Positions 5,587 through 32,000 are shown, counted from the first letter of the stretch. The stretch is 32,000 nt of DNA from an uncultured Opitutales bacterium (GCA_934660865.1 CAKUIA010000012.1:30001-62000), one strand, 5' to 3'. Numbers and translations are program-made. The notes: generated from the letters alone by a model not told the origin.

Positions 5587-5609
5587 TAAAAAACAAGACA
5601 GGATTTTAA

Positions 5610-8099: not shown

Positions 8100-8117
8100 C
8101 ATTCAATAGCTAAAAAT

Positions 8118-8252
8118 ATGGACAAGAAAACCGATTCGCTGCCAATGTGCAGGAAAACCAGCACCGACTGGCTGTTTATATTCGTATACTCGCTGGCCGC
8201 AATAATGCTGGCTATTCAGGTTTTTCTTGTCGTATTTTTAGACATTTTTTAA
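8118..8252 (+). CDS. possible 44-aa small membrane protein
   Basis: Below the ORF-track length cutoff. It reads MDKKTDSLPMCRKTSTDWLFIFVYSLAAIMLAIQVFLVVFLDIF, with one hydrophobic helix. Its stop codon is 1 nt before the ATG of the next membrane gene. Confidence 0.3.
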   Translation: MDKKTDSLPMCRKTSTDWLFIFVYSLAAIMLAIQVFLVVFLDIF

Positions 8253-8253
8253 A

Positions 8254-8862: not shown

Positions 8863-8900
8863 TCTTAAAACAACAATCTAAACGGTAAAAGGAATTTGTT

Positions 8901-9206
8901 ATGTTTTGCAAGTATTGCGGAGCGCAAATAGACGACAACGCCGTAGTTTGCGTAAAATGCGGCAGGCAAATTGCGCCATTAAAAGAGGGCAAAAAGAACG
9001 ACAAAGTTATATACCTTCTTTTGGCGATATTTTTGGGAGCATTCGGCGCGCACAACTTTTTTGTGGGGCGCACAAAAACGGCGCTAATACAGCTCTTGAT
9101 TACGGTATGCTCGTTTTTTACACTGTCGTTTTTTGTGGCGGTGTGGGCAATAATAGAGGCCTGCCTAAACCTAAATTCCGAAACGCTGTTCGGCGACAAA
9201 CAATAA
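8901..9206 (+). CDS. zinc-ribbon plus TM2 domain membrane protein
   Basis: It has an N-terminal CxxC...CxxC ribbon (CKYCGAQIDDNAVVCVKCG) and then a TM2 core (YLLLAIFLGAFGAHNFFVGRTKTALIQLL). Confidence 0.8.
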   Translation: MFCKYCGAQIDDNAVVCVKCGRQIAPLKEGKKNDKVIYLLLAIFLGAFGAHNFFVGRTKTALIQLLITVCSFFTLSFFVAVWAIIEACLNLNSETLFGDKQ

Positions 9207-9226
9207 ATTGCGCCCTAACATAGCGC

Positions 9227-9259
9227 AAAAAAGTCTTCCCAACTGGGAAGACTTTTTTT
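9227..9259. terminator. bidirectional rho-independent terminator
   Basis: A 10-bp stem AAGTCTTCCC (9231-9240) / GGGAAGACTT (9245-9254) encloses a 4-nt loop. An A-run precedes it and a T-run follows, and it sits between convergent genes. Confidence 0.75.
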
Positions 9260-9327
9260 GTCGAATGGCAACGAACATTCCTTTCGGTTTGAGGAGCAAA
9301 AAAGCAATGCCCGTCATGGCAAGCGCC

Positions 9328-9504
9328 CTATTTCTTTTTTTCCTGCGCGTCTTTAACTGCGCGCAGTTTTCTTTCTATGTCCATTCCTATCTTTCTGTGC
9401 GACGCCGTTTTGTTTAGCGAATTTATGGCTTTGTATGCCGATTTTAATTCCCTTAAAATTTCGTCGTCTGCAGTTTGCTCCGGTTGCTGTCTATTCTCGT
9501 TCAT
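9328..9504 (-). CDS. 58-aa hydrophilic protein translationally coupled to the ECF sigma gene
   Basis: Not in the ORF track (<60 aa). Its ATG at 9504-9502 overlaps the sigma gene's TGA at 9503-9501, forming ATGA. It translates as MNENRQQPEQTADDEILRELKSAYKAINSLNKTASHRKIGMDIERKLRAVKDAQEKKK, and its stop is at 9330-9328. Confidence 0.5.
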   Translation of the reverse strand: MNENRQQPEQTADDEILRELKSAYKAINSLNKTASHRKIGMDIERKLRAVKDAQEKKK

Positions 9505-10154
9505 AGGCGGTTTAACTCACTTTCCTTTTGTACGGTCTCCTTAAGTTTTTTCATTATGCGGTAGACCGCGTTGTTTACGGTGTTTTGCGATACGCCAAGC
9601 TCGCGCACCACCGTTTCGACGTCCATATCCTCAAGCTTTATCATTTCGAAAGCCGCGCACGTGCGCGCGTCGAACTTGTGGCGTATGGACATGTATGCGT
9701 CTAAAATCAGGCTTTCCTTAAACGCCCTTTCCTCCTCCTGCTGCAGCTCCACTTTTTTGCTTTCGGCATACAGCTTTTCGGCAGAGCAAAGCACGTCGGA
9801 TTCGTCGTCGTCGATTGAGCCGAAGTTTGCGCCCTTTGCGTTTTTGCGCAAATAGTCCACAACGCGCCTTTCGCAAATGGTCTTTAAAAAGCACCTAAAG
9901 CGCGATTTCGAAGAATCGTAGATTTTCCTCGAAAAAATTTCATTCAGCGAAACGATTGTGTCGGCTACAACTTCGTCTATAACCGAAGCGGGCACGCCGT
10001 ACCAACCGTGCTTGTAAAATCCGTTGCCGACCATTATTTTTATGGGCGCGTGGTAGATGTCGAAAAATCTGCGCCACGCACCGTTCCAGATTGCCATTTC
10101 CTCGGGATCGGAAAGCTTGGCTATTATTGTTTTAGGTGTATCGGGTAATTTCAT
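9501..10154 (-). CDS. ECF-type sigma-70 family RNA polymerase sigma factor
   Basis: 217 aa. A region 2-like segment is present (AWRRFFDIYHAPI...FRCFLKTICERRVVDYLRK), along with a region 4.2 HTH (VVRELGVSQNTVNNAVYRIMKKLKE). Confidence 0.75.
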   Translation of the reverse strand: MKLPDTPKTIIAKLSDPEEMAIWNGAWRRFFDIYHAPIKIMVGNGFYKHGWYGVPASVIDEVVADTIVSLNEIFSRKIYDSSKSRFRCFLKTICERRVVDYLRKNAKGANFGSIDDDESDVLCSAEKLYAESKKVELQQEEERAFKESLILDAYMSIRHKFDARTCAAFEMIKLEDMDVETVVRELGVSQNTVNNAVYRIMKKLKETVQKESELNRL

Positions 10155-10210
10155 TTTATAAAATGTATTTCGTTGTCCGCCGCAAAAAAATCATTCGATA
10201 TGGCTGGTTA

Positions 10211-10238
10211 AGTGTATGATTTGCCGCAAAGGTGTCAA
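10211..10238 (-). promoter_or_regulatory. candidate sigma70-type promoter for the ECF sigma gene
   Basis: Read on the minus strand: TTGACA (10238-10233), a 16-nt spacer, then TACACT (10216-10211), about 55 nt upstream of the ATG at 10154. Confidence 0.4.
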
Positions 10239-10299
10239 TTTCCATAAAAAAGGGCTTTTTCGCGCGATTTTTTGCGTCGCGCCCGCGATATCAAAAAAA

Positions 10300-10806
10300 A
10301 TGGCGACAATAAAACAGGTATCTACCCTTTTGCAAAGCGACACAACTTCGCTGAATATAATTTGGCAAAATCTCGAATTGATTTTGTCGAAAAAGGAGGC
10401 GATTTTAAGCAACCTAAACTATTACGCGCTACACATCTTCGGCACGGGAATTTTTGCGCTTTATGCAAACTACCCGCGACTGTATCTGGGCGACTTTGTA
10501 AGGCTTTGGACGCAACATTCAAACTGGCATTTAAACGGCCTTTATACCTATGCGCTTTGCGGCAGCCCGCTTTCGGGCATGAACATATGCAAAGGCTACA
10601 ACACAACGCTGCGCAAGTACGAAAGGCACCAAAAAGAATCCTTCAATATTTTGGCGCACGAAGCGCAAAAAGTAGTTCAAACACGCCCCTTTTATTTGGG
10701 CGAAAATCTCCCGCAGCTTAACCTTTGCGGCAACACCGCAAAAGAAACCTTTTGCAAATCCGACAAAAAACTGTCCGAACTTGTCGAAAAGTTAAAGACC
10801 TTATGA
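10300..10806 (+). CDS. hypothetical protein (168 aa)
   Basis: The ORF-track frame starts at 10216. I prefer the ATG at 10300 (MATIKQV...) because the 5' extension overlaps the divergent promoter. I recognise no motif. Confidence 0.45.
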   Translation: MATIKQVSTLLQSDTTSLNIIWQNLELILSKKEAILSNLNYYALHIFGTGIFALYANYPRLYLGDFVRLWTQHSNWHLNGLYTYALCGSPLSGMNICKGYNTTLRKYERHQKESFNILAHEAQKVVQTRPFYLGENLPQLNLCGNTAKETFCKSDKKLSELVEKLKTL

Positions 10807-10851
10807 TATTTATTTTGACACAAATTCCGCCATTTTGTTAGCTTCAAAACA

Positions 10852-12312
10852 ATGGAATGCGCCAAACCAAATATCCCGAATTTTGAAATTTTACGCAAAA
10901 TTGGCGAGGGCGGATTTGGCACGGTTTACCTTGCCCGCAAAAACGGCGCCTATTGCGCGCTAAAAACCGTGCTTGTAGCCGACGCAAAAAAGGAGATTGC
11001 GGGCCTAAAAAAGTACGCAGCCATTGCCGACAGGCAAAATCTTGTTGCGGTACACGATTGGGGAATTTCGGACGGATTGCTCTATTACGGAATGCCGCTT
11101 GCCGACCCGATAGACGCCGCTTTTAACCCCGAAGATTTCAGATGGCGCGTAAAATCGCTGCAAAGCCTGATAGACGAAAAACTGGAATCGCCCGACAATA
11201 AATGGTTTTCGCCATACGAGATTTTGGCGTATATTTCGCCGCTTTTCGACGCCGCCATTGCGGTTGGCAACGCAAACCTGCTACACCGCGACATAAAACC
11301 CGACAACGCGCTGTTTTTCGGCGGAAAAATAAAACTCTCCGACTTCGGGCTGCTGCAGCTCGACAAACGCTCGCTTTCGAATATCGGAACGCCGTTTTAC
11401 GCCGCTCCAAGCTGGTTTGTAGGCAGCGGCGGCAACCCCGATGTTTACGGGCTGGCCACCACTTTTTATACCCTTATAACCGGCAACTTGCCCGATACGA
11501 TAGGCCGCCCCGCCTACCGCTTCCCCGAAAAAATTGCCGATACAATCTCCGGCAAAGACAGGGAACGCTGGCTGCATTGGCACAGGTGCATATTGCGCGC
11601 CATAGCCGAAAACCCCTCCGAGCGCTATCTTACAATTAGGGATTTTAAAAATGCGGTATTGTCGGAAAACTTCTCGTCGTCGCTAATCGCAAATAACGGC
11701 AAGTCAAAGAAAACGCTGGGCAAAAAATACTTGGGCGCATTTGCCCTTTGCGTCGCAATTTTTGCGGGCGCATTTTTTTGCGTTCGCCAAATTTATTTTG
11801 GGAGAGACGCTTCAGAGCATGTCGGCGCCTTTGAAATGGACGGGCAAGTTTTTAACAATATATCCAAGAACGGCTTTTCGGACGAAGAATTGGGCGTAAA
11901 AATAATGTCGCACGCGCAATGGCTTGAACACAATAAAAACATTTACGGGCAGTTTAAATCCGACTACGAAAGCGCAAAGGAATTGTCTAAAAAAACAAAA
12001 GACGAAATCGCCGCCGAAGTTCGCAAAAAATATTCGGAAGACTTCGACAGGCTCTTTTCGAAAATAACAACGCCCGCCGAAAGGGAAATCGGGCTAAAAA
12101 AATATCTCGACGCAAAAAGGGAATGGATTGCCCGCGATATCGAAAGCGAAATAAAAAACGTTTCGCGCGCAAAAGACGGCTTAGGCGATTCGCTAGAAAG
12201 CATGTCGCTTATATCCGAAAGAATGGGAAACCCGACATTGTACAAACAATATGTTTTCGAAAGCTACGAACGCTACCAAAAACAAAAGTCGTTCGAAAAA
12301 AATTTAAAGTAG
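10852..12312 (+). CDS. membrane-anchored Hanks-type Ser/Thr protein kinase
   Basis: The kinase motifs are GEGGFGTVY (10903-10920), ALK, HRDIKPDN (11284-11307), DFG (11341-11349) and GTPFYAAPS. One TM helix (LGAFALCVAIFAGAFFCV) is followed by a ~170-aa Lys/Glu-rich C-terminal domain of unknown type. Confidence 0.88.
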   Translation: MECAKPNIPNFEILRKIGEGGFGTVYLARKNGAYCALKTVLVADAKKEIAGLKKYAAIADRQNLVAVHDWGISDGLLYYGMPLADPIDAAFNPEDFRWRVKSLQSLIDEKLESPDNKWFSPYEILAYISPLFDAAIAVGNANLLHRDIKPDNALFFGGKIKLSDFGLLQLDKRSLSNIGTPFYAAPSWFVGSGGNPDVYGLATTFYTLITGNLPDTIGRPAYRFPEKIADTISGKDRERWLHWHRCILRAIAENPSERYLTIRDFKNAVLSENFSSSLIANNGKSKKTLGKKYLGAFALCVAIFAGAFFCVRQIYFGRDASEHVGAFEMDGQVFNNISKNGFSDEELGVKIMSHAQWLEHNKNIYGQFKSDYESAKELSKKTKDEIAAEVRKKYSEDFDRLFSKITTPAEREIGLKKYLDAKREWIARDIESEIKNVSRAKDGLGDSLESMSLISERMGNPTLYKQYVFESYERYQKQKSFEKNLK

Positions 12313-20235: not shown

Positions 20236-23200
20236 TTAGAACCTGAATTGCGCACCGAGATTCAAGCCGTGGGCGGAATATCCGCTACGCAAAGTGGCGC
20301 TGTAGTCGACGAACACCGAAGCGGCATCGTCGAATTTGTATTGCAGGCCCAAACCGAGAACCGCAGCGTCTCTGCTAACTTCTTCGCCTTCAAACTTTGC
20401 CGATGGCATATAGCTTGCAGCCTGTGCAATCCTGTAGTCGACATCGTAGGAATCGTCGGCAAATTCGTGCGTCCAAAATGCGCGTACAAGAGCCGAAAAG
20501 TTGCCTGTGATATCGTATTTAACTTCCAAACCCAGCATTGTTCTGAAGTTGAGGAAGTCGTTGCTTTCTACGCTTGCATTGTAGATACCAGCGCCCTTTT
20601 CGTCTGCCGCGTCTGCATTGGAGTATGCCAAGTTGTACATCAACATTGGCTTTATCGACAAGCCTTTTGTCGCAACGTCGGAGAACGTGTAGGCAACGCC
20701 GCCCAAGCTATAGAACGAGTTGGAATCATAATCGGCAGTCGCCGTTCCGAGAGCCGTCTGGCGCGACGTTTCGTTCCAGCCGTGCGAATAGCCGAGGTTC
20801 ATGAATATATCAAGCGGAATCTGGTCGAGAGAATATTCACCGTATACGTTTGCGATGAAGTTCGCCGAGTTTGCGTCCGCGTTGGCGTCGCCGTCAATCT
20901 TGTTGTAGGTGCCGCCAAGCGACAGACCTGCAAATAGGCTCTTGGAAAAGTCTCTCTCTATTGCGGCAACACCGCCTGCCGACCAGAAGTCGAAGCCCGC
21001 AGCATTTGCGCCGCCGTCTTGCGAACCAAGCATGTTTATGCTTTGGAATTCGGCAACATTTGCACCGGCTTTCTCGATTGTGTGTTGCGTGCTATTTCTC
21101 TTAACGTCGGCCCTGGAGGCAAGTCTAAACATCTGAACGGTGTTCATGTTTATCAGCGCTTCGTTGTTCAACTGCGCGATGAACGACTCGGCAGTGGGCA
21201 AAAAGCCGTCGAGATTGATGCTGGTATTCGAGCCGGAGGCAGCCATACCGAGTGTTTCCACATCGCTTTTGAAGTCGCGGCGGGTTTGAATGTCCGCTTC
21301 GCGTGCAAGGGCGTCTTCCTTCGTTTCGTTTTCCGAAGCTTCGATTGTAGCAATACCGTCGAGAGCCGCACCCAAACGGGCGGAATTTGCATTAGCCGCC
21401 TTGTTTTGGAAGTACGAAAGCCTGTTTACTTTCATAGTTACATTTTGATCTGCGGTATTGTCGACCGAGTAGCTGAAGTTGATGCCATCGCCGTCGAGCG
21501 AGCCGAGAGCGTTTACATCGTCCTTGTTCATGCTCGATGCGGTGTTGTCTTTGTCAAACTTCTGGAATGCCTGGTCTGCATTTAGGTCGGCAAGCTTGCC
21601 GAGATCCGTCTTGTCGTTTACCAACATTGTTGCGTTGCCCGCAAATTTGTTGGCTCTAACCGACGCCAAGTAGCTGTTCTTCATTTCGGCTTTTTTTGCC
21701 GACTTTTGAGCGGCAGTCAAGTCCATTGCGTCTACGCTTGCTTCGATTTCGGCAAGTTTTGCATATTCTACGGGGATTGTGATTTTTGCCACATTGCCCG
21801 CAGCATCGGCAGTCATTGCAAGGTTTGCATCGCTTGCCAATTTTATTGAACTTACGCCGGTAAGGTCGCCGGCAACAACAAAGTTGCCGCCGTTTACGCT
21901 CATTTCTCCGCCGGCTTTAACATTGCCTTTTATATCGGTACGGCCTTCGACATTAACATTAAGGTCGCCACCCGTTTCAATGGCATTGCCGTTGAACGCC
22001 GTTTTAACAACTTTTTCTGCGGTATCGTCCCACGAGACGTTTACATGTTCAAAACGTTGGGTTTCGGCATTGAATACATTCTGTTTTGCGCTTACAATCG
22101 CGCCGTTGCCGAAGCTTACTTCGCCGTCGGTTGAAACCAGGCCCTTTGCGTTCGAGGCATCGTTTGTAAACGAATCTGCAACCGCATTAAGAGTGCCGTT
22201 TACGACGAGGTTTTTCGTTTCGGGGTCTACCGCAATAGCCGTACCGGACTTTGAATTTGCTTCGTCTACAACAAGCTTGTCCGTTGCAGTGTCAACTTTG
22301 TATGCCAAAACCGCTTTGGATTCGGCGGATACGGTTCCGTTGATTGCGCCGTTTATTGCATTTGCCTGAACGCCTGTGGCGTTGCCGCCTTCGGATTTCG
22401 CCGAGACAGTGCCGTTAATATCGCCGTTAATGTCGCCGTATACAAGAACGCCGTTAACATCGTCGGTTATTACGCCGGCAACATAGTCTTCTTTGTTGTG
22501 TTGTTTTACGGATTTAAGCGCGGTATTTTCGGCCGAAACCGTACCGTTGATATCACCGTCAAACGAATTTGCGAACATACCCGTAGCCATACCGCCTTCG
22601 GATTTTGCCGAAAGGTTGCCGTTTATGTTGCCGATAACTTCGGCATTGCCCGCATAAATTGCGGAAGCGTGGGCTATGGAGGAGTTGGCTTCGTCGATTT
22701 CCTTTGTATCTTTGCCTTCGCTGTCCTTTACATATACAACGTTGGCTTTGGATTCGGCGGAAATATTACCGTTGATATTGGCACCGAGCCTGTCGGCCAC
22801 TCTGATACCCTTTGCGTTGCCGCCCAAAGACGCCGCAGAAACGTCTGCATTGAAATCGCCGACAACTTCTTTTTCGAAAGTTTTTTCCGAAGAGGAATCC
22901 ATTGCATATTTGCCGTCTTTGTCGGCCTTCAGCTCGACAGTGGCAATTTTATCCGTTTTTTCGAACGTTTCATTGCCGTTGGCGTCAATATATCTGGGCT
23001 TCCACTGTTTTGTAATATCCTTTTCGGATTCGTCCTTGGCGTACTTTTGTTTTAAAGAACCATCGTCGTTGAACGCCGATTCTTCCGTGCCGCTTTGGGC
23101 TTCTGTAGTTGTGTAATCGTACTGTTTAAGAATTACACGCGTGCCGATTTCAATTTTCCCTGCATCGATGGCAACTGCATCGCCGCCGACTGCCTGGGCA

Positions 23201-24828
23201 TTGAAACTACCGTTTAGGGAAACATTGCCCAATTTACCTGCAGAAACCAAATTCTCGATTTGAATCGGAGCAAGCGTTTCCTTATCGGTCATTTTTTTGG
23301 CGTCTTCATTGGGAACGATGTAGGCGTTGTCAACAACCAATTCGTTGCCAAGGGTAATATCGCCGCTGAACGCGGTTGCATTGCCTTTTGCCGCGATTTT
23401 CCCGTCAACAGCCGTACCCGACACTGCAGATGCGTTGATTGTTGCCGAAACATTGTTTGTCAGTTTTTCGGGCAAGGTTTTAACTATATCGAGAGACTTA
23501 GTTTCTTCGTTTCCGATAACTATTTCGCCCCTTATGGCTGTTGCGTCAACAACAGTGTCGGTATCAAACCCTTCGGCGTTTGCGCTTGCGCTTATGTTGG
23601 CGTTTACGCCGCCAAGAGCTTTATCATTACCATTCCGTTGGTCGTTTTTATAACCGCCAAAAGATATGTCTCCTTCAATGGCCGTAGCATTGCCTGCCGC
23701 AAATGTCTTTGTTTTGCCGTCGGCAGATTCGGAAATCTGAGCTTTCTTTGCTTCTGCAGTAGCCTCTATGGACAAATCGTTTTTTCCATATACATCGCCT
23801 TTTACCGCCACTGCATTGCCGCCTTCGGAAAGTGCCGAAGCCTTTACGCTTGCGCTATCAATGCCGTTAACGTCAATGGCAATAGCATCGCCTATTGTAG
23901 CAAGCTTTGACTTATCCTGTTGGTCGAGCATTTGCGCCTTAGACACGGCCGAAGCTTCCAGCGAAGCTACGTCAATATCGCCAGCCTTAACGGCAACAGC
24001 ATTGCCATTTGTTGCAGCTGCACTTGCCTTTATTGTAGATTTTCCGTCGTCTGAATAGATGCCTTGTTCTACCAATATGGCATTTGCGTCGCCTTCGGTG
24101 GCCGTGGCATCTGCTTGAAGCACTACATTTTTGCCGTATATAGCAGTGGCCTCTATTGCGTTTGCCAAAGTTTTACCCTTTGCTATTGCCCTTATTTCAA
24201 CATCTCCACCGTTTTCGGACGTTGCATCAAGAATCGTGTTATATTTACCTTCGCTATCGTCAAAAGCAAAAACGTTCGATTCTCCGCCGTTAATGGTTCC
24301 AACTTTTACCGCACGTGCCTCGCCCTTTTCGGCTACCGCCTCGGCTTCAAGCTTGAAATTTGCGGCTTCCACTGCGGAAATTTCGGCCTTGTCTGCATCG
24401 ATTTTTCCAACCTCGGAAACGCGGAAAGATTCTTTCTTCGAAAGATTGATATCTCCCGCTTCAAAAACCGTCGCGTTGCCTTCTTCCGAAACGGCTTTCA
24501 TTTTTAGATCAACCGACGATGGATCTACTTTTATGGCTCCTTTGATTGCCTCTTTTTCGTATTTGACATCGGATTTTACAAAATCCAACGATTCGGACAA
24601 ATCTGTTATACCCAGACCGTCCTTGTCCTGCGAAAGGGTGATATCGCCCTTCATTTTGCCATCGTAAGACCCGACCCAAATATTTTTGGTTTCGGGATCT
24701 TCCGTTACCGTCGAACTTCCGCTATCGTCGGCTATGGCGTACACGCCCGCAGCCGCATAGAAAAGCGAAAGCAACACTGTACGACCCGCAATATACACGG
24801 GGTCTTTATGTTTCTTTATTCTCTTCAT
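20236..24828 (-). CDS. type Va autotransporter with a large repetitive passenger domain (putative adhesin)
   Basis: 1530 aa. It has an N-terminal signal-like segment and a passenger full of G-[GN]-[NDM]-A-x-[AG] beta-helix-like repeats. The C-terminal ~280 aa form an autotransporter beta-barrel (alternating strands AGLSLGGTY, NVYGEY, and ending LNLGAQFRF with a terminal Phe). Confidence 0.85.
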   Translation of the reverse strand: MKRIKKHKDPVYIAGRTVLLSLFYAAAGVYAIADDSGSSTVTEDPETKNIWVGSYDGKMKGDITLSQDKDGLGITDLSESLDFVKSDVKYEKEAIKGAIKVDPSSVDLKMKAVSEEGNATVFEAGDINLSKKESFRVSEVGKIDADKAEISAVEAANFKLEAEAVAEKGEARAVKVGTINGGESNVFAFDDSEGKYNTILDATSENGGDVEIRAIAKGKTLANAIEATAIYGKNVVLQADATATEGDANAILVEQGIYSDDGKSTIKASAAATNGNAVAVKAGDIDVASLEASAVSKAQMLDQQDKSKLATIGDAIAIDVNGIDSASVKASALSEGGNAVAVKGDVYGKNDLSIEATAEAKKAQISESADGKTKTFAAGNATAIEGDISFGGYKNDQRNGNDKALGGVNANISASANAEGFDTDTVVDATAIRGEIVIGNEETKSLDIVKTLPEKLTNNVSATINASAVSGTAVDGKIAAKGNATAFSGDITLGNELVVDNAYIVPNEDAKKMTDKETLAPIQIENLVSAGKLGNVSLNGSFNAQAVGGDAVAIDAGKIEIGTRVILKQYDYTTTEAQSGTEESAFNDDGSLKQKYAKDESEKDITKQWKPRYIDANGNETFEKTDKIATVELKADKDGKYAMDSSSEKTFEKEVVGDFNADVSAASLGGNAKGIRVADRLGANINGNISAESKANVVYVKDSEGKDTKEIDEANSSIAHASAIYAGNAEVIGNINGNLSAKSEGGMATGMFANSFDGDINGTVSAENTALKSVKQHNKEDYVAGVITDDVNGVLVYGDINGDINGTVSAKSEGGNATGVQANAINGAINGTVSAESKAVLAYKVDTATDKLVVDEANSKSGTAIAVDPETKNLVVNGTLNAVADSFTNDASNAKGLVSTDGEVSFGNGAIVSAKQNVFNAETQRFEHVNVSWDDTAEKVVKTAFNGNAIETGGDLNVNVEGRTDIKGNVKAGGEMSVNGGNFVVAGDLTGVSSIKLASDANLAMTADAAGNVAKITIPVEYAKLAEIEASVDAMDLTAAQKSAKKAEMKNSYLASVRANKFAGNATMLVNDKTDLGKLADLNADQAFQKFDKDNTASSMNKDDVNALGSLDGDGINFSYSVDNTADQNVTMKVNRLSYFQNKAANANSARLGAALDGIATIEASENETKEDALAREADIQTRRDFKSDVETLGMAASGSNTSINLDGFLPTAESFIAQLNNEALINMNTVQMFRLASRADVKRNSTQHTIEKAGANVAEFQSINMLGSQDGGANAAGFDFWSAGGVAAIERDFSKSLFAGLSLGGTYNKIDGDANADANSANFIANVYGEYSLDQIPLDIFMNLGYSHGWNETSRQTALGTATADYDSNSFYSLGGVAYTFSDVATKGLSIKPMLMYNLAYSNADAADEKGAGIYNASVESNDFLNFRTMLGLEVKYDITGNFSALVRAFWTHEFADDSYDVDYRIAQAASYMPSAKFEGEEVSRDAAVLGLGLQYKFDDAASVFVDYSATLRSGYSAHGLNLGAQFRF

Positions 24829-25092: not shown

Positions 25093-26127
25093 ATGAAAAA
25101 CGAACTTATTTCCGCAAAAACGCTGCTTGAATGCAAAGGCATCTCACTTTTGGACGCGGCAAGATTAATATGCAATGCGCTTGATTGTCTGCCGAAAAAT
25201 TCAATGCTTACCCCGGTTCAATTCTGCTCGAAAATAATCGAAGAGGGAAAACGACACATTCGCACTGCCGAAATGCCGGTGGCAAAAGGTTTCACTCTCT
25301 ATTTGGAATCCAAGCGGCATTTGCGCAAAGACTCTTTCAACGACATTCGCTATTTAGGCAAACGCCTGCTAAAGACAAATCCCGAACTTGGCAAACGCAA
25401 TTTTTCGGAGCTTAGCGTATCGGAATGCGAAGAATGGCTGAATGCGGCGTTTACTACAAATCCGCAATTCAAGCAAAGCGCGAGTCAATTCAACAAGGGG
25501 CGGACAATGTTGCATGGGTTGTTTGAATTTGCCCTACGCCGCGAATGGTGCGAAAAAAATCCAATAAAGAAAATCGAACGCCGAAAGGTAGTCGAAAAGG
25601 AAATTCAGCCCCTAAAACTATCCGAAACAAAGCGAATAATAAAAACCGCACAAAAAGAAAGCTCTGCCTACGCCGTAGCTGCCGCGCTTTTAGTCTACAC
25701 GGGCATTCGCCCGCGCGAAGTGCGCAGGCTAACTTGGCACGATATCGATACCGAAGAAAAGACAATTACAGTCCGCTCGCAGTGCTCTAAAACGGGAGGT
25801 GTAAGACAAGTGGAAATCCCTCCCGTCTTAAACAAACTTTTGATTACCCATAAATTAAAAAACAATTCTCCTATTTGCCCGACAGACTGGCAGCGCCGCT
25901 GGCGCAAAATCCGCGACAACTCCGGCTTTCGCGGGCGTTGGGTTCAAGATGTTTTGCGCCATACCTACGCCAGCTTCCATGCCAAGCACTATGCCGACTT
26001 GCCACGCCTGCAGCTTAATATGGGGCACCGCGACTTATCGCTTCTTCGTTCGCGCTATGTAAACATGCACGGCATTTCACGCACCGAGGCAAAATGCTTT
26101 TTCGAATCCAAAGAAATTGGCATATAA
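25093..26127 (+). CDS. tyrosine site-specific recombinase (phage integrase family)
   Basis: 344 aa. The catalytic signature is present: TGIRPREV (Arg I), VLRHTYAS (box II His-x-x-Arg region), MGHRD and RSRYVNM (Tyr nucleophile). Confidence 0.85.
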   Translation: MKNELISAKTLLECKGISLLDAARLICNALDCLPKNSMLTPVQFCSKIIEEGKRHIRTAEMPVAKGFTLYLESKRHLRKDSFNDIRYLGKRLLKTNPELGKRNFSELSVSECEEWLNAAFTTNPQFKQSASQFNKGRTMLHGLFEFALRREWCEKNPIKKIERRKVVEKEIQPLKLSETKRIIKTAQKESSAYAVAAALLVYTGIRPREVRRLTWHDIDTEEKTITVRSQCSKTGGVRQVEIPPVLNKLLITHKLKNNSPICPTDWQRRWRKIRDNSGFRGRWVQDVLRHTYASFHAKHYADLPRLQLNMGHRDLSLLRSRYVNMHGISRTEAKCFFESKEIGI

Positions 26128-26220: not shown

Positions 26221-26251
26221 ATCTGGCGTCGCAACAATCTTGTTTGTCGCA
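26221..26251 (+). repeat. 31-bp direct repeat, copy 1 (ATCTGGCGTCGCAACAATCTTGTTTGTCGCA)
   Basis: It matches 26821-26851 at 29 of 31 positions. Internally it has GCAACAA-N6-TTGTCGC, an inverted-arm layout with one mismatch. Confidence 0.9.
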
Positions 26252-26346
26252 TTTTTTGCCAAACTTTATGTTCAATTTTTTGAGCATAAAAACATTGAGC
26301 TTTTGCATTGCAAACACTTTGCTGAAATTTTTTAACGGAACGGCTA

Positions 26347-26382
26347 CTTTAAAATTTTGCGTAAATACGCAGAAATTTAAAG
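26347..26382. promoter_or_regulatory. 36-bp imperfect palindrome upstream of the ATPase gene remnant
   Basis: The sequence is CTTTAAAATTTTGCGTA-AA-TACGCAGAAATTTAAAG, with 15 of 17 arm positions complementary. It ends 9 nt before the ATG at 26392. Confidence 0.6.
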
Positions 26383-26391
26383 TAGGTTAAA

Positions 26392-26716
26392 ATGAACAGC
26401 GCACGCCCCATATTCGGTCGATGTCGGACAAGCCATCGTAAACACAAAAGATTCAAGAGGGACAAGCAAACGAAAGTATTTTGAAGTCGATTTTGTCTGC
26501 AATTCGGGGTTCAAACGCTATTATATCCAATCGGCTTTGGAATTGCCCACGAAAGACAAGGCCGAACAAGAGCTGCGGTCTTTGCAGAATATAAACGACA
26601 GCTTCCAAAAAATGGTGATAGTCGGTGGAATTGCCCCGACATACCAAAACGAAAGCGGCATTATAATTATGAACGTTTTTGATTTTCTTTTAGGCGATTC
26701 AAAACTTTTTGAGTAG
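26392..26716 (+). pseudogene. internally deleted, frameshifted paralogue of the COG1373 AAA ATPase gene
   Basis: The first ~8 codons (MNSARPI) match the start of the intact gene at 27191 (MNIARPI). At 26414 the sequence jumps to the homologue of 28147-28447 (YSVDVGQ...MNVFDFLLGDS), one base out of frame. The ATG frame then stops at 26482-26484. The junction lies in a shared ATATT. Confidence 0.8.
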
Positions 26717-26784
26717 CAAACTGCGCCGAGCTTAATTCCTGCGGGCCTTTGCTACGCAAAAATCCCATCATCGTTTTGCCTGCA

Positions 26785-26851: not shown

Positions 26852-27074
26852 ACATATTGACCTATAAGCAATAGGCGTTTTAACGTTATCTTTGCAGAAA
26901 CGTGAAAAGGCGTCTATCTTGCGAAAATTTTTGGGTCAGTTTTTTCGTAAATTAAGAGTTTAACGGTTTGTCTCATTTTTTACAGAACTTTTTGTCCGAT
27001 TCTTTGAATCGTAAAAACATTGAGTCTTCACATTACAAGCACATTACTGAAATTTGCTTTGAGGGGAGATCTGC

Positions 27075-27108
27075 TTTAAATTTTTGCGTATTTACGCATA
27101 ATTTTAAA
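27075..27108. promoter_or_regulatory. 34-bp imperfect palindrome, second copy of the GCGTA..TACGC motif
   Basis: The sequence is TTTAAATTTTTGCGTA-TT-TACGCATAATTTTAAA, with 14 of 16 arm positions complementary. Confidence 0.6.
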
Positions 27109-27145
27109 TTAAAAGCTTGATTTATCCCTAACATTGCCATTTATT

Positions 27146-27190: not shown

Positions 27191-28447
27191 ATGAATATAG
27201 CGCGCCCCATATATTTGCAAAAGCTCATCGACCGCAAGCAGAATGGAATGATTAAGGTCATTACCGGAATGCGGCGTTGCGGTAAATCTTTTTTGTTGTT
27301 TTCGATTTTTCGCGAGTACTTAAAACAGAGTGGCATTGATGACGGGCACATTATAGCAGTAGACCTTGAAGACCGTCGCAACAAGCAGTTGCGCAATCCC
27401 GATACGCTTTTGGATTTCATCGACAAAAAGATGTCGGGCAAAGGAGTCTATTACATATTGATAGACGAAGTTCAGATGGCGGCTGAATTCGAAGATGTTT
27501 TAAACAGTCTTTTGAAGAGGTCAAATGCCGACGTTTATGTTACGGGCAGCAACGCGAAATTTCTTTCGAAAGACGTGATTACCGAATTTAGGGGGCGCGG
27601 AGACGAAGTGCGAGTTCGCCCGTTGTCGTTTGCGGAATTCCATTCCGCCAATCCGCAAGAGGACAGAACCGCAGCGTTGTCGGAATATATGGCTTACGGC
27701 GGGTTGCCGCAAACGGTTTCGATGAAATCGGCTACGCAGAAAGAGGACTACTTAAAAGATTTGTTTTTGCACACCTACCTTGTGGATATAAAGGAGAGAT
27801 ACCGAATCAGAAACGATGAGGACTTGGAGGAATTGGTACGGGTTGTCGCGTCGGCAATCGGCGGGCTGACGAATACAACCAAGTTGCAGAACACGTTCAA
27901 TTCCGAAAAGAAAAGCAAGATTTCAAACGCCACGATTAAGAATTATCTTGATATGCTACAAGACGCTTTTCTTGTAGAAAAAGCTACGCGCTACGACATA
28001 AAAGGGCGCAAGTATATCGGCACGCAATCTAAATATTTCTTCGAAGACTTGGGCGTCCGCAACGCCGTGATAAACTTTCGGCAGTCGGAGGAATCGCACC
28101 TTATGGAAAATATGATTTACAACGAACTGCGTATGCGCGGATATTCGGTCGATGTCGGACAAGTCACCGTAAATACAAAAGATTCAAGTGGAACAAGCAA
28201 ACGAAAGTATTTTGAGGTCGATTTTGTCTGCAATTCGGGATTCAAACGCTACTACATTCAATCGGCGTTGGAATTGTCCACGAAAGACAAGGTTGAGCAG
28301 GAGCTGCGGTCATTGCAAAATATAAACGACAGCTTCCAAAAAATGGTGATTGTAGGAGGAACAGCCCCGACATACCAAAACGAAAACGGCATTATAATTA
28401 TGAACGTTTTCGATTTCCTTTTGGGTGATTCAACGCTTTTTGTATAG
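27191..28447 (+). CDS. COG1373-type AAA+ ATPase with a DUF4143-like C-terminal domain
   Basis: 418 aa. It has Walker A (ITGMRRCGKSFLL), Walker B (YYILIDEVQ), and a C-terminal FEVDFV motif typical of the PD-(D/E)xK-like DUF4143 module. Confidence 0.8.
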   Translation: MNIARPIYLQKLIDRKQNGMIKVITGMRRCGKSFLLFSIFREYLKQSGIDDGHIIAVDLEDRRNKQLRNPDTLLDFIDKKMSGKGVYYILIDEVQMAAEFEDVLNSLLKRSNADVYVTGSNAKFLSKDVITEFRGRGDEVRVRPLSFAEFHSANPQEDRTAALSEYMAYGGLPQTVSMKSATQKEDYLKDLFLHTYLVDIKERYRIRNDEDLEELVRVVASAIGGLTNTTKLQNTFNSEKKSKISNATIKNYLDMLQDAFLVEKATRYDIKGRKYIGTQSKYFFEDLGVRNAVINFRQSEESHLMENMIYNELRMRGYSVDVGQVTVNTKDSSGTSKRKYFEVDFVCNSGFKRYYIQSALELSTKDKVEQELRSLQNINDSFQKMVIVGGTAPTYQNENGIIIMNVFDFLLGDSTLFV

Positions 28448-28493
28448 CTGATTATATCATCTTCCCCCTTCAGATTTTAGTCTACATTTTTCG

Positions 28494-28528
28494 GGCGGCG
28501 GGGTATTTATTCCCTGCCGCCTTTTTTT
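28494..28528 (+). terminator. rho-independent terminator after the ATPase gene
   Basis: A 10-bp stem GGCGGCGGGG (28494-28503) / CCCTGCCGCC (28512-21), with one G-U pair, encloses an 8-nt loop. A T-run follows at 28522-28528. Confidence 0.75.
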
Positions 28529-28552
28529 GGGTAAATTTTTACTCAATAATAC

Positions 28553-28569
28553 ATAGCTTTGTAAGCTAT
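28553..28569. promoter_or_regulatory. 17-bp palindrome ATAGCTT-TGT-AAGCTAT at the head of the four-gene operon
   Basis: It has perfect 7-bp inverted arms and ends 5 nt before the ATG at 28575. Its position is operator-like. Confidence 0.45.
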
Positions 28570-28574
28570 TTTTT

Positions 28575-29105
28575 ATGAGTAAAGAATATTACACATTAAG
28601 AGAACTAATAGACAATAACGGCGGACTTTTGAATGACGAAAGTCTGCATTTTATAGCCAAACACGGCTTGCTGTGCGAGTTGTTGCTTTGCGACAATCGG
28701 CTTGGGGAGGAGGCGTTCTTGGCGTTGCCCGCGATGGGATATGCGCCAAACAGCAACGAGCTTGCGTGTTATCTGTATATGCGCGACGACCTCGATTGCA
28801 AAATGATGTCGGCTCTAAACCTGTCCGACGCAGTGATGTTAGAGTTGCTGTGTCTTGACCTCTCGCTTTTGCCTGCGGTAAGGGCGAAGGGATTATTTGG
28901 GCGAATCGACGAAGGGCAATTTGCGAGGATTTTCATCAACGCGTATCGCGCGGCGGAAAGCACTGAGCTTGTTGCCGAGTTGCAAAAGCGCGGATGGGCT
29001 TTTATGGACGCGGTAATTTTGGACTGCCCTGAGATAATCCCCACACTCGAACGAATGGGTGCGGATTTAGAGCAGTCGCGCTATGCCGAGTATTTTTCGA
29101 AGTAA
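28575..29105 (+). CDS. hypothetical 176-aa helical-repeat protein (possibly degenerate ankyrin-like)
   Basis: It shows repeating helix-pair segments resembling ankyrin periodicity (LHFIAKHGLLCELLL, FINAYRAAESTELVAELQKRG, AVILDCPEIIPTLERMGADL). The match is weak and made by eye only. Confidence 0.45.
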   Translation: MSKEYYTLRELIDNNGGLLNDESLHFIAKHGLLCELLLCDNRLGEEAFLALPAMGYAPNSNELACYLYMRDDLDCKMMSALNLSDAVMLELLCLDLSLLPAVRAKGLFGRIDEGQFARIFINAYRAAESTELVAELQKRGWAFMDAVILDCPEIIPTLERMGADLEQSRYAEYFSK

Positions 29106-29132
29106 ATTTTGTGAGTAGGAGAGATTTTCGAG

Positions 29133-30599
29133 ATGAAAGAAAAAATAGTTTCTACAATCAAAACGAGCGCGGGAGAGTTGCAACTTTCAGAAGACGCGCT
29201 TTGCAAACACACGATATTTATCGGCAGCACGGGCAGCGGAAAGACAACTTCGCTCAACGTGCTTCTTCGAGATATCATCGGCTACAATGCGAATGACGAA
29301 ATGCAAAAAGTCGGCTTGCTCGTCTTCGATTTAAAGGGCGACAACACGCTTTTTAAAATCCGAAAGTTGGCTAAGGAATGTGGACGCGAGGCTGACGTTA
29401 TCGACTATTGCGCCGACTCGCAGTTTTACTTCGACCCGCTCGGCGGCTTGGACAGTTTCCGCAATATTCCCGAATACGTCGAACGGCTTTACAACATCTT
29501 CCCATTCCAGAGTAGCGAGGTCTATTGGGAGCAGTCGTTAAGAAAGCGGTTCAAGACCGTGCTGACTTACTGCTTATTCCGACACGGAAGGATGACGTTT
29601 AAACTGTTCTTGGAAGAGCTGCGAGAGTTTACAACGGCGGATTCGACAAACGGTAATTGGCGCGGCGTGATGGATTCTATTGAGATGGTTTTGCGCGCGC
29701 TCGAAAAGAAGTCGAAAGGCACAGTCGCCGAATCATATGAAATCCTACGCGAACTTTTAGAGAACACGCGGGCGGGCGTTAACGAATGGCAACATCTTGA
29801 CCCGCGAACCAAGAGCAACGAGCTAAGCACGATGACGAACCTGGTTTCGAACTTCGGCAACCCAATTACTAATGGGCACATTTTCGAGGGGAAGAGCAAG
29901 ATGCGCTTGGACGTTGGCAAACTTGTGTGTGCAGGAAAGATTGTCGTGGCTTCGTTCGACGGCATCTCCAACAGGCAGTCGGCGGCGGCAATTTGCAAGC
30001 TCTTAAAGAGCGATGCCTACGGACACATTCAGACACGTCAAAATCCAAGCCGGCTTGTTGGTATTGTAATGGACGAGTTCCCGCTTGTGGCAACAGATGG
30101 CGAAAACATCTCGGGAGACGGCTTCAATATGCAGACAATTCGCTCAAAGCGCGGCTTTGTGATTGCCGCCACACAGGGACTTGTCGGGCTTGATTTGGCA
30201 ATCGGAGAACCCGCCCGTCGCAGGCTTATGACGAACTTCAACAACGTCTTCGTCTTCAAAAGCAACGAGCGCGAGGTGCTCGAACTGGTTGAAGATTTGA
30301 ACTTCTGTGAACCGCCGCAGAACAAAATCGGGTTCGGTAGTAATACCATTTGCGAAAAACGCGAACCTATAACGCTTGCCAATGCTCCCGCGGGCTACGC
30401 CGCGATAAAACTTGCCGACGGCTTCCAGTCAAAGGGTCTCGTTGAAATCGAGCGTCTCTATGTTGATACACCGCCAATGCCCGAAAATAGGCGCGAATCG
30501 GAAATCGACAAATGCGCAAAGGTTCTCCGAACCTACTTAAAGACAATCGATTTTAACGCCTGCCTTAACGGTAAATTTTTAGACAAAGACACTTTATAA
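29133..30599 (+). CDS. soluble TraG/TraD/VirD4-like (FtsK-HerA superfamily) P-loop NTPase
   Basis: 488 aa. It has Walker A HTIFIGSTGSGKTT (29223-29249), FDLKGD and FDPL motifs, Walker B IVMDEF (about 30060-30080), and RSKRGFVIAATQGL. Motif order and wording follow type IV coupling proteins, but there is no N-terminal TM segment. An AGGAGA RBS lies at 29117. Confidence 0.65.
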   Translation: MKEKIVSTIKTSAGELQLSEDALCKHTIFIGSTGSGKTTSLNVLLRDIIGYNANDEMQKVGLLVFDLKGDNTLFKIRKLAKECGREADVIDYCADSQFYFDPLGGLDSFRNIPEYVERLYNIFPFQSSEVYWEQSLRKRFKTVLTYCLFRHGRMTFKLFLEELREFTTADSTNGNWRGVMDSIEMVLRALEKKSKGTVAESYEILRELLENTRAGVNEWQHLDPRTKSNELSTMTNLVSNFGNPITNGHIFEGKSKMRLDVGKLVCAGKIVVASFDGISNRQSAAAICKLLKSDAYGHIQTRQNPSRLVGIVMDEFPLVATDGENISGDGFNMQTIRSKRGFVIAATQGLVGLDLAIGEPARRRLMTNFNNVFVFKSNEREVLELVEDLNFCEPPQNKIGFGSNTICEKREPITLANAPAGYAAIKLADGFQSKGLVEIERLYVDTPPMPENRRESEIDKCAKVLRTYLKTIDFNACLNGKFLDKDTL

Positions 30600-30602
30600 T
30601 CT

Positions 30603-30776
30603 ATGAAATCCCATCATTCAAAATCATTTTCGCGATACCTGCGCGAAATCAAAATCAGATACAAACGCGAATCGGCAAAACGAAGCTTTTTCGTAGCTTG
30701 CGAACATTGCGACCTGCCGATTCTCCACACGTCAAGGTTGCTTGCCAACAAACAACTCGCATACGAAAGGAACTAA
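30603..30776 (+). CDS. 57-aa basic protein with a CxxC motif
   Basis: Not in the ORF track. It starts 3 nt after the ATPase stop codon and ends 1 nt before the next ATG. It reads MKSHHSKSFSRYLREIKIRYKRESAKRSFFVACEHCDLPILHTSRLLANKQLAYERN. Confidence 0.4.
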   Translation: MKSHHSKSFSRYLREIKIRYKRESAKRSFFVACEHCDLPILHTSRLLANKQLAYERN

Positions 30777-30777
30777 A

Positions 30778-31212
30778 ATGGACGAAAAACTTTTTCACGC
30801 ACACAAAGACACACACAACCCGAACAACCCTTATCCCGAGTTTGTTCGCCAAGCGGCAAAACGCACGAAAGTACCGATTGAGCTTTTGACGCGCAAAAAA
30901 TATTGCGGGAAATCCGCTAACGGCAAAGGAGACAATCACCATATCTTGGATAAGTCGCTTTTCCCCAAGAAAGGAACGCCTACTATCAGCGTTTCAAAAG
31001 AAAAACACTTCGAACTTCAATGCCTGCTCGCCCAAGCCACAACCCTACAAGGCTATATGGACTACGAACAAGCCCTGAAAGCCGAATGCCCCGAAATCCA
31101 AAACCCCATCGCCCAAATCTACTGGCAACGCATAGAATCCCTCCATACCCCGTGGCGAATTAGGCTGACAGTGTGGGCAAAGAAGATTTTTAGGGTTTAC
31201 GTTGTTATATGA
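30778..31212 (+). CDS. hypothetical 144-aa protein with an NHH...H motif (possible HNH/EndoVII-like)
   Basis: I prefer the ATG at 30778, preceded by AAGGA, over the track TTG at 30742. The segment GDNHHILDKSLFP...KEKHFEL loosely resembles the xHH toxin/nuclease variants of the HNH fold. Confidence 0.4.
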   Translation: MDEKLFHAHKDTHNPNNPYPEFVRQAAKRTKVPIELLTRKKYCGKSANGKGDNHHILDKSLFPKKGTPTISVSKEKHFELQCLLAQATTLQGYMDYEQALKAECPEIQNPIAQIYWQRIESLHTPWRIRLTVWAKKIFRVYVVI

Positions 31213-31269
31213 TGGCGGGTGGGGGAATAGAGAAAATTACAGATAGGATATTGGGATGCCTTAAATGTA

Positions 31270-31602
31270 TTATTCGGAGTACAATTTTTCTCCTAGCGCC
31301 TCTATTTTCGCCATATTTGACTCTAGGATATTAAGTATTTCTTCTTTTGTTTGCACATTTAAAGCCATTTTATAATCTTCGTTATTGGGTAAGAGAATTC
31401 CCAATTCGCTAAAAGCATCTAAGATTCGCATCGATCTACCAAACCCGATATCAGCGGCTCTCATTGCCACACTAGAAGTACAATAACCTTTCTTTAACAT
31501 TGCGTCGATAATTTTCATTAATACTGTTTTTTTTGCTTTTTTCATTTTACGCCCAATTGATTGTGATTTCCTATGCATACCGAAACTCAACCATGGTTTC
31601 AA
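31270..31602 (-). CDS. standalone FtsK-gamma-like winged-helix protein
   Basis: The segment SSVAMRAADIGFGRSMRILDAFSELGILLP aligns by eye with the FtsK gamma core (ISxxQRxxRIGYNRAARIIEQMEAQGIV). The start is uncertain, with Met codons at 31602, 31578 and 31545. Confidence 0.5.
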   Translation of the reverse strand: MKPWLSFGMHRKSQSIGRKMKKAKKTVLMKIIDAMLKKGYCTSSVAMRAADIGFGRSMRILDAFSELGILLPNNEDYKMALNVQTKEEILNILESNMAKIEALGEKLYSE

Positions 31603-31664
31603 GATAATTTATTGACAAAATTATAAAAAATATCATCCTGAATAGGCGTCAGGATTACCGTTGC

Positions 31665-31964
31665 ATGGAAACAATAAACATTCAAAACATAGAAGACAAA
31701 TGGAAAAATTTTATTTGTGAAGAAAGCGATGTTCCCATCATAGGATTACTGCCGTTTCAAGGCCACGAAAAAAAACTTTTCTTAAATTGTATTGAAAATA
31801 TTCCCGTTGCGACCGAGAAACGTATCGTAGCGGAGTTATGCAACTTATTAGACAAATATCCATTTTCGACATCAATTTGGATTGCAACAATCGCTGCTGA
31901 AACATACGCAAATGGTGATTTTGGTCTGGGTTTTCCGATGGACTTGGGCTATCCCAAACACTAA
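31665..31964 (+). CDS. hypothetical 99-aa protein
   Basis: An intact ORF in an AT-richer stretch, with no motif I recognise. A 7-bp-stem hairpin (ATCCTGA/TCAGGAT) lies just upstream, in the interval between 31602 and 31665. Confidence 0.3.
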   Translation: METINIQNIEDKWKNFICEESDVPIIGLLPFQGHEKKLFLNCIENIPVATEKRIVAELCNLLDKYPFSTSIWIATIAAETYANGDFGLGFPMDLGYPKH

Positions 31965-32000
31965 CAGACCCCATAGCGAGAAAGGAATTATATTGTAAGT

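Follow-up and report, generated by a model that had tools for sequence, protein, structure and literature searches.

In a 32,000-nucleotide stretch of DNA from an uncultured Opitutales bacterium (GCA_934660865.1, CAKUIA010000012.1:30001-62000; hereafter the window), four closely packed genes form an operon around an ATPase that resembles the coupling proteins of type IV secretion. We lean, with modest confidence, towards reading this operon as the coupling-protein module carried by one family of integrative mobilizable elements (IMEs) in gut Opitutales, in which the ATPase and the products of genes 1, 3 and 4 would hand a relaxase-DNA complex to the channel of a helper element. We consider it improbable that the operon is a stand-alone defence system of a new kind. 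A sequence-only reading of the same DNA had proposed a candidate undescribed system of a defence-like kind. What survives of that proposal is a genuine and unnamed module, for which defence is a less likely reading than coupling. The four genes are open reading frames (ORFs) placed as follows:

28575-29105, plus strand: gene 1, 176 amino acids (aa)
29133-30599, plus strand: gene 2, 488 aa
30603-30776, plus strand: gene 3, 57 aa, its stop one base ahead of the gene 4 start
30778-31212, plus strand: gene 4, 144 aa counted from the ATG

The same-strand arrangement, with gaps of 27, 3 and 1 nucleotides (nt), had been described in the sequence-only reading and is confirmed by the ORF coordinates. 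All four ORFs are intact. Among intact copies from the closest relatives (clade A, defined below) the median ratios of nonsynonymous to synonymous substitution (dN/dS) are 0.126, 0.111, 0.128 and 0.155 for genes 1, 2, 3 and 4, respectively, and all four genes are under purifying selection.

Gene 2 encodes a coupling-protein-like ATPase predicted to be soluble

The product of gene 2 is a P-loop nucleoside triphosphatase (NTPase) with a Walker A motif (GSTGSGKT) at residues 31-38 and a Walker B motif (IVMDE) at residues 311-315, both of them invariant across the clades of its family. Above the Pfam cut-offs it matches DUF87 (2.4e-7) and TrwB_AAD_bind (5.7e-5), and the NCBIfam models of TraD-type coupling proteins match its Walker A region. 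Likewise, a profile of the gene 2 family finds DotL in the PDB (E 1.3e-6, over residues 12-273), and more distant members of the ATPase family bear the Pfam domains T4SS-DNA_transf and TraG-D_C. An AlphaFold model, of moderate confidence only (predicted local distance difference test score (pLDDT) 65, predicted template modelling score (pTM) 0.67), places an all-alpha region at approximately residues 105-255 (helices 109-250), with six long helices between the Walker motifs. When this model is compared with the PDB by Foldseek, the 33 best matches are to Cagbeta (8DOL, the top match, E 6e-7), TrwB (1E9R and 1E9S) and DotL (6SZ9), and these are followed by VirB4. HerA and FtsK are absent from the structural matches with E <1e-3, and HerA was seen for gene 2 only as weak matches to the Walker A region in profile and PADLOC searches.

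Because the Pfam, NCBIfam, DotL profile and structural matches agree, we assign the predicted protein to the VirD4/TrwB fold, as a cytoplasmic and soluble member, and not to HerA or FtsK. Since the Walker A motif begins at residue 31, there is no N-terminal membrane domain; the highest hydropathy of any 19-residue segment is 1.28. The earlier description of a 488-aa TraG/VirD4-like P-loop NTPase lacking its N-terminal anchor is therefore upheld by the position of Walker A, the DUF87 and TrwB_AAD_bind matches, and the fold shared with Cagbeta, TrwB and DotL.

The four genes are conserved as a unit with sharp ends

To place the operon among its relatives we used about 100 fetched loci with greedy ORF calling and ORF clustering, both of which are crude. 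The ATPase family is confined to gut Opitutales (Verrucomicrobiota), where it occurs in metagenome-assembled genomes (MAGs) labelled Opitutales, Opitutia or Verrucomicrobia and also in the isolate Puniceicoccaceae Marseille-Q1082; one match is named Candidatus Merdousia. Four ATPase clades can be distinguished. Clade A comprises the close relatives, with ATPases 78-94% identical. Clade C has the same four-gene order with an ATPase that is approximately 42% identical, a gene 1 product of 159 aa, a gene 3 product of 72-87 aa and a gene 4 product of 140 aa. In clade B (ATPase approximately 45%), the ATPase gene is followed by genes for a 528-aa protein, a 51-aa gene 3 homologue and a 150-159-aa gene 4 homologue; these last three adjoin one another in L065, L090 and L105, and in L011 an insertion separates them. 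Clade D (L099 and L100, ATPase 41%) has a different order altogether: a gene 4 homologue (162 aa), a 77-aa homologue of the N-terminal part of gene 1, genes for proteins of 364 and 310 aa, and then the ATPase.

That the conservation persists through changed gene order argues for a real co-conserved functional unit, with a core of the ATPase and genes 3 and 4 and a variable, putatively helical partner. Consistent with what the sequence-only reading had presupposed, then, the four genes are co-conserved elsewhere: the module is present in all four ATPase clades, whose identity falls to about 40%, and in one of them it is reordered.

At the level of DNA, the module is a 2.67-kb unit with sharp ends that is found in many flank contexts. 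Nucleotide homology among the clade-A loci starts at 28525-28529 and stops at the last gene 4 codons (approximately 25 loci), and beyond these points at least seven unrelated kinds of sequence adjoin the module on the left and six on the right. Two copies, L007 and L009, come from a single MAG, many metagenome contigs break inside the ATPase gene, and about one third of the clade-A ATPase copies are frameshifted or internally deleted. Taken together, the sharp ends, multiple copies, contig breaks and decay appear to be the behaviour of a backbone module of a mobile element. A recombination core shared by both module boundaries (TTTTTNGGGT) was considered and rejected, as the right junctions of other loci differ and follow divergent last codons of gene 4.

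A separate observation concerns gene 4 itself, which in L004, L007, L034 and L035 is cut at an identical point (after ...HHILDKSLF; approximately position 30963 of the window) and joined to the same foreign sequence, leading to a gene for a 411-aa protein and an autotransporter gene. This shared junction inside gene 4 is a recombination or insertion junction.

Relaxases and recombinases accompany the module

The sequence-only reading had placed the ATPase outside a conjugation context and had named, as what would speak against it, relaxases lying just past the window and consistently near relatives of the ATPase. This is what we find. The contig L106, which carries the exact gene 4 protein of the window, is 100% identical to window positions 30201-32000 over 1800 nt and extends the sequence to the right. 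Its continuation contains the same two small genes, a gene for a 966-aa protein, the helicase gene druE (PADLOC 2.5e-178) and then, on the minus strand, a TrwC-family relaxase gene whose near end is 8.8 kb past the gene 4 stop. The Druantia-type pair of 966-aa protein and DruE, together with TrwC, spans L106 positions 2040-11012, or approximately 32.2-41.2 kb on the scale of the window. Thus the combined order of the window and L106 is tyrosine recombinase, AAA_14 cargo gene, the four genes, the two small genes, Druantia-type DruE system and TrwC relaxase. The near-identical loci L103 and L104 show autotransporter, 344-aa integrase, a cargo gene, the four-gene module, a Druantia-like pair and TrwC.

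The relaxases near the module are of two unrelated families. The TrwC family (cluster c8, 20 members of 743-838 aa, Pfam 2.1e-46) is encoded 0.7 kb downstream of gene 4 and convergent with it in L006, L009 and L021, and 0.4-1.8 kb upstream of the ATPase in many clade-B loci. The second (cluster c5) matches the NCBIfam model relax_MbeA_E1 of the ColE1 relaxase MbeA (1.2e-10 and 2.4e-9) and has invariant residues Y14, H100, E108 and N110, that is, the HEN motif, which is typical of ColE1-like MOBP5 relaxases (PMC3394729). The gene for this HEN relaxase is preceded by an overlapping NikA-like/MobC gene (1.9e-13) of the ribbon-helix-helix type. Among the 25 well-flanked loci, defined as those with at least 4.5 kb on both sides and with neighbours counted within 10 kb, a relaxase of either the HEN or the TrwC type lies near the ATPase in 17, and a tyrosine or serine recombinase is likewise present in 17. 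Furthermore, each ATPase clade is paired with its own clade of HEN relaxases, and in clade B the genes for relaxase, serine recombinase and ATPase are on the same strand and make up a single block, with 32 nt before the ATPase gene. At the end of the L006 island are TrwC, an integrase and a transfer RNA (tRNA) gene for Val, and in L008, L013 and L014 the module lies 250-430 nt from a tRNA-Asp gene.

In the DNA at hand, the traits of an IME are a tyrosine recombinase in the window, TrwC downstream in L106, and annotated flanks free of pore genes; an oriT (origin of transfer) was not found. The most economical reading is that the backbone of these elements consists of a recombinase, a relaxase of either type and the coupling-protein module, with the defence genes as cargo. 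A phage origin was also considered and is rejected: the sole contig filed as viral that carries a relative shares the gene clusters, and their order, of the L011 island. This contig, L098 (IMG/VR UViG_2914150438_000002, 75 kb), has relaxase, serine recombinase and ATPase arranged as in L011 and was probably filed as viral by mistake, being an integrative element and not a phage.

It is worth considering whether the module serves some other part of the life of the element, such as processing, replication, segregation or control of the excision of its circle. In that case the ATPase would translocate DNA and the basic proteins would bind it at specific sites. Recombinase genes are constant neighbours of the module: in clade B one for a serine recombinase precedes it by 32 nt, and the window, L005, L010 and L018 have one of the tyrosine or serine type immediately ahead of it. 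The products of genes 3 and 4 are basic, and the module sits at the island edge by tRNA-Asp in the three loci named above. However, the fold is that of coupling proteins, which are known for delivering substrates to type IV secretion, and searches of Pfam, NCBIfam and PHROGs gave no similarity to partition, replication or excisionase families. Nor do att repeats tie the module to an element end: in L013 and L014, a search for att-type direct repeats shared by the flank at tRNA-Asp and that at the integrase found only chance 7-10-mers, and the module ends are not element ends. We find this role in element housekeeping highly doubtful.

Least probable of the readings that we weighed is that the copy in the window is what is left of a transfer module in decay, without function in this genome. 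It is true that many relatives have ATPase frameshifts or deletions or a truncated gene 4, and that a scan of the window for remnants of a HEN relaxase, a NikA/MobC-like gene, TrwC, HipA and a serine recombinase found none, so that the window is without mobilization genes of the HEN type or their remains. Yet the four ORFs of the window are intact, the dN/dS of intact copies is 0.11-0.16, and the TrwC relaxase gene lies downstream in the identical extension.

The partner proteins and a possible role in defence

The products of genes 1, 3 and 4 have no match in Pfam, PADLOC, NCBIfam or PHROGs. That of gene 1, a putative helical-repeat protein in the sequence-only reading, is acidic (isoelectric point (pI) 4.5) and cytoplasmic, without a transmembrane segment; homologues are encoded ahead of the ATPase in clade A and in clade C (35% identity), and clade D has the 77-aa N-terminal homologue mentioned above. 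The idea of one unified family of helical partners was dropped, since gene 1, the 364-aa family of clade D and the 528-aa protein of clade B showed no similarity when compared profile to profile. As a side observation, in L099 (12295-14575) a gene for a 366-aa paralogue of the clade-D 364-aa helical protein overlaps the start of a gene for an AAA_15 (OLD/Gabija-like) ATPase, and this clade-D partner family seems to pair with two different ATPases.

Gene 3 encodes a basic peptide of 57 aa (pI 10.1), whose homologues are found directly ahead of gene 4 in clades A, B (51 aa) and C. Its conserved features are a helix-like C-terminal motif, LPxxHxxxxLxAxxI...N, and the invariant residues R14, P39, H42 and N57, the last being the C-terminal Asn. 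The sequence-only reading had called it a basic CxxC peptide. Basic it is, with one CxxC present, but this motif is not conserved: even close relatives have H, Y or I in place of C33, and clades B and C have neither Cys. An interpretation as a zinc-ribbon or CxxC peptide therefore fails.

Gene 4 encodes a basic protein of 144 aa (pI 9.5) that belongs to an uncharacterised, lineage-restricted family, and a homologue of it is present with the ATPase in all four clades. The family is tiny: an exhaustive profile search of 1.84 billion representatives gave 42 matches, all of them small stand-alone proteins. In an alignment of 21 diverse members the invariant residues are H54, H55, F62, H77, Y96 and R118, and so the His-His...His motif noticed in the sequence-only reading is genuine. 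To our eye the pattern HH-x(21-30)-H-x2-L(H/Q) recalls HNH nucleases. Pfam scans of 13 and 21 members gave no match to HNH, to another nuclease or to any other credible family, and sequence-profile searches of the PDB gave no match. A fold search returned nothing below E = 1.8, using an AlphaFold model that is unreliable (shallow alignment, pLDDT 56, and <50 at residues 26-68). Gene 4 may thus be considered a putative nuclease as a hypothesis only.

These features bear on an alternative that we take seriously and still consider unlikely, in which the module is a defence or exclusion system, carried by the islands as cargo or as part of their backbone. The ATPase would recognise foreign DNA, either a relaxase-bound single strand or that of a phage, and the gene 4 product, as a putative degenerate His-Me/HNH-like nuclease, would cut it. 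The invariant H54, H55 and H77 fit such a role, every component is cytoplasmic, and the core of ATPase, gene 3 and gene 4 is more constant than its tie to any single relaxase. In addition, the module family sits among defence-type genes (AAA_14/PDC-S01, DruE, type III restriction-modification, SNF2, AAA_15, HipA and AbiE). Beside the reordered genes of clade D are a RelB toxin-antitoxin pair, AAA_15, AAA_14 and type III restriction-modification; neither relaxase nor recombinase genes occur within 10 kb of them, and one of the extra clade-D proteins has the paralogue paired with an AAA_15 ATPase. On the other hand, no PADLOC model is matched beyond generic P-loop similarity, and the gene 4 protein has no detectable kinship to HNH or to any nuclease by Pfam, PDB profile or fold search. 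Were the module defence cargo, one would expect neither an enrichment of recombinases and of two unrelated relaxase families around it nor its diversification in step with the HEN relaxase, and the frameshifts and internal deletions in a third of the clade-A ATPase copies also count against defence. The claim that no named system corresponds to the operon holds when it is set against PADLOC-DB v2: there is no PADLOC system match, its partners are uncharacterised families, and the partners from other clades have no PADLOC match either.

A proposed mechanism and what weighs against it

Among IMEs, and in a few mobilizable plasmids, elements with a coupling protein of their own are known, and its gene is frequently gained and lost (PMC5704250). 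For the module as a coupling device, we infer the steps of recognition and docking, over and above the observed fold, co-conservation and genomic association. The element would excise, and its relaxase would nick the oriT of the element and stay bound to the single strand. A hexamer of the ATPase would then recognise the relaxase-DNA complex through its all-alpha domain and the small partners, with the products of genes 1, 3 and 4 acting as adaptor or regulatory subunits; the basic gene 3 and gene 4 proteins probably bind DNA, whereas that of gene 1 is acidic. Finally, the ATPase would pass this complex to a type IV secretion channel supplied by a conjugative element in the same cell, replacing the coupling protein of this helper or working alongside it. 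Because it is without a membrane domain, the ATPase would have to dock on a membrane component of the helper, as is thought to be the case for TraJ of pIP501 with TraI.

Several observations weigh against this interpretation. Within 10 kb, five of the 15 well-flanked clade-A loci, as well as clade D (L099 and L100), have neither a relaxase nor a recombinase. In clade A the module is often several kilobases from the relaxase, with defence cargo between them. Genes for a type IV secretion pore were found in none of the annotated 10-kb flanks, and we know of no helper conjugation system in these hosts. The metagenome loci are not independent of one another, many being the same arrangement recovered from different metagenomes. 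By hydropathy, neither gene 2 nor its partner proteins have transmembrane segments, and deletion of the membrane domain inactivates the coupling proteins TrwB, PcfC and MobB (PMC7431656). Lastly, the three conserved partners, one of them with an invariant His triad, are foreign to any known coupling-protein system.

One can also imagine that an anchor-free, cytoplasmic, coupling-derived ATPase with a His-triad protein and a basic peptide constitutes a new kind of island-borne system. It might act on relaxase-bound DNA instead of delivering it, destroying or excluding incoming conjugative DNA as a form of anti-plasmid immunity or entry exclusion, or it might hijack the channel of a helper by an anchor-free mechanism. 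We hold this to be decidedly unlikely.

Comparison with known systems

It is informative to examine the module, read as a coupling device, in light of better-known systems. The resemblance to TrwA-TrwB-TrwC of plasmid R388 is seen in the ATPase model, which matches TrwB over approximately 470-490 aligned columns with a template modelling score (TM-score) of approximately 0.6 (TrwB-normalised), in the TrwC-family relaxase of the same island and in the small accessory proteins encoded alongside. In contrast to TrwB, gene 2 has no N-terminal membrane domain and only approximately 15% sequence identity. Here, moreover, either kilobases of DNA with cargo separate the relaxase gene from the module or the relaxase is a HEN one, genes 1, 3 and 4 are unrelated to TrwA, there are no mating-pore genes nearby, and the element is integrated rather than a plasmid.

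A further comparison is with CloDF13, with MobB and the relaxase MobC, and with the streptococcal IMEs with VirD4 or TcpA, which also combine a relaxase, a recombinase and a coupling-type ATPase of their own without pore genes. In elements with their own coupling protein, these genes are gained, lost and swapped between relatives (PMC5704250), and the patchy link to relaxases seen here mirrors this. The differences are that VirD4 goes with MOBC relaxases in the known elements (PMC5704250), whereas MbeA-like HEN (MOBP5) or TrwC (MOBF) relaxases are found here, and that MobB of CloDF13 needs its membrane domain (PMC7431656) and gene 2 has none. In addition, the host phylum here is Verrucomicrobiota, and three extra conserved partner genes are present.

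With regard to the missing anchor, a minority of coupling proteins is accepted to lack a membrane domain, and TraJ of pIP501, like the predicted gene 2 product a soluble ATPase of the VirD4 family, is one of them (PMC7431656). However, pIP501 is self-transmissible and supplies a membrane partner, while the proteins co-conserved with gene 2 are without membrane segments. The pair of Cagbeta and CagZ from Helicobacter (8DOL) shows a coupling protein under the control of a small helical regulator, a possible parallel, by analogy, for the acidic gene 1 product; unlike gene 2, Cagbeta is membrane-anchored and works within a complete effector-secretion system.

Modules of the HerA type (HerA-NurA, Sir2-HerA, DUF4297-HerA and DndH/DptH) share with the operon the P-loop superfamily, small protein partners and surroundings of defence genes. 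Compared with them, the PADLOC matches of gene 2 are weak and restricted to the P-loop region (mad8 5e-8; HerA and DndH 1e-5 or weaker), the fold is that of coupling proteins and VirB4, there is no recognisable nuclease, and the link to relaxases and recombinases is strong.

Leader, cargo and flanking genes

The remaining features of the region are these:

25093-26127, plus strand: tyrosine recombinase of 344 aa (Pfam Phage_integrase, 2.3e-17)
27191-28447, plus strand: AAA_14/DUF4143 ATPase, cargo (Pfam AAA_14, 1.4e-32; DUF4143, 1.5e-18; PADLOC candidate PDC-S01, 2.6e-119)
28526-28574, plus strand: left end of the module and conserved leader (GGGTAAATTTTTAC...), where homology starts in approximately 25 clade-A loci

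A strong terminator of the upstream AAA_14 gene lies at 28493-28528, with an 11-bp stem ending at 28522 and a T-run. Because it closes that gene, the operon needs a promoter of its own in the 50 nt ahead of gene 1, and the leader at 28526-28574 presumably holds it; a simple sigma-70 consensus scan of the leader flagged no promoter. The leader also contains what had been described as a perfect 17-bp palindrome. This is an inverted repeat (28553-28569, ATAGCTT-TGT-AAGCTAT) with 7-nt arms and a 3-nt spacer, in which 14 of the 17 positions are self-complementary. The window has 36 inverted repeats of equal quality, against approximately 12 in shuffled sequences. In relatives the arms are mostly of 6 nt, and several loci have uncompensated changes or a different leader. 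Being imperfect and only partly conserved, the repeat is given no weight. An Rfam scan of the window gave no match, and no tRNA genes were found in the window.

The sequence-only reading had noted that the operon lies in an accessory-looking region beside a recombinase and a gene of the ATPase/nuclease kind. Both genes are indeed there, and we prefer to regard their surroundings (AAA_14/PDC-S01, Druantia, restriction-modification, HipA) as cargo belonging to the same mobile element. The slot between the relaxase or recombinase and the module varies, with AAA_14/PDC-S01 in the window and HipA, Metallophos, UvrD or a serine recombinase in other loci. Between the integrase and the intact AAA_14/DUF4143 gene of the window lies a second, internally deleted copy (26242-26717; compared with 26966-27111 and 28117-28448), with an upstream region 77% identical, and a last 332 nt 88% identical, to those of the intact gene.

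The tyrosine recombinase is probably the integrase either of the element or of an adjoining autotransporter unit. The same 344-aa integrase and autotransporter pair lies upstream of the module in L103 and L104, and homologous integrases adjoin the module in many loci. In the window, a large autotransporter gene (20236-24828, minus strand) stands next to the recombinase gene (25093-26127, plus strand), and this pair recurs upstream or downstream of the module, being found also in L004, L005, L007, L024-L026 and L103-L105, with autotransporters of 800-2700 aa. This recurrence suggests that the autotransporter and tyrosine recombinase are a separate mobile or invertible surface-protein unit.

Further observations concern genes beyond the module. 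Convergent with gene 4, at 31270-31602 on the minus strand, is a gene for a protein of 102-110 aa that is found only in the arrangement of the window and L106 and has a weak match, under the Pfam cut-off, to FtsK-gamma (a winged-helix DNA-binding domain; E 4e-4). In L047, L051, L062, L075 and L078 the clade-B ATPase gene is often followed by a gene for a protein of 81-119 aa and then by genes for one or more proteins of 330-480 aa, which, by the look of their sequences alone (YD/RHS-core-like motifs, variable C-termini), resemble polymorphic toxins of the Rhs type. Finally, a housekeeping block of aconitase, gyrB, gyrA, DUF2238 and TM2 genes at 1282-9206 in the window is syntenic with L004 positions 97-8008. 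The module directly follows this block in L004, and approximately 19 kb of other genes lie between the two in the window; because this distance differs, the position of the island relative to the core genome differs between strains.

Implications

To our knowledge, almost nothing is known about conjugative transfer in the Verrucomicrobiota. The present analysis outlines a family of mobilizable islands of human and animal gut Opitutales that carry restriction-modification, Druantia-type, HipA and other defence cargo. What is new here is an island-borne, anchor-less coupling-protein module with three uncharacterised partners, paired with relaxases of the MbeA-like (HEN) or TrwC type. There is also a caution for annotation, in that the flanks of coupling-type ATPases found in defence-rich islands should be checked for relaxases before these ATPases are named new defence systems. 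If gene 4 turns out to encode a nuclease, the module could be an immunity system directed at conjugation; if the partners prove to be adaptors, they would show the route by which a soluble coupling protein reaches a foreign secretion channel.

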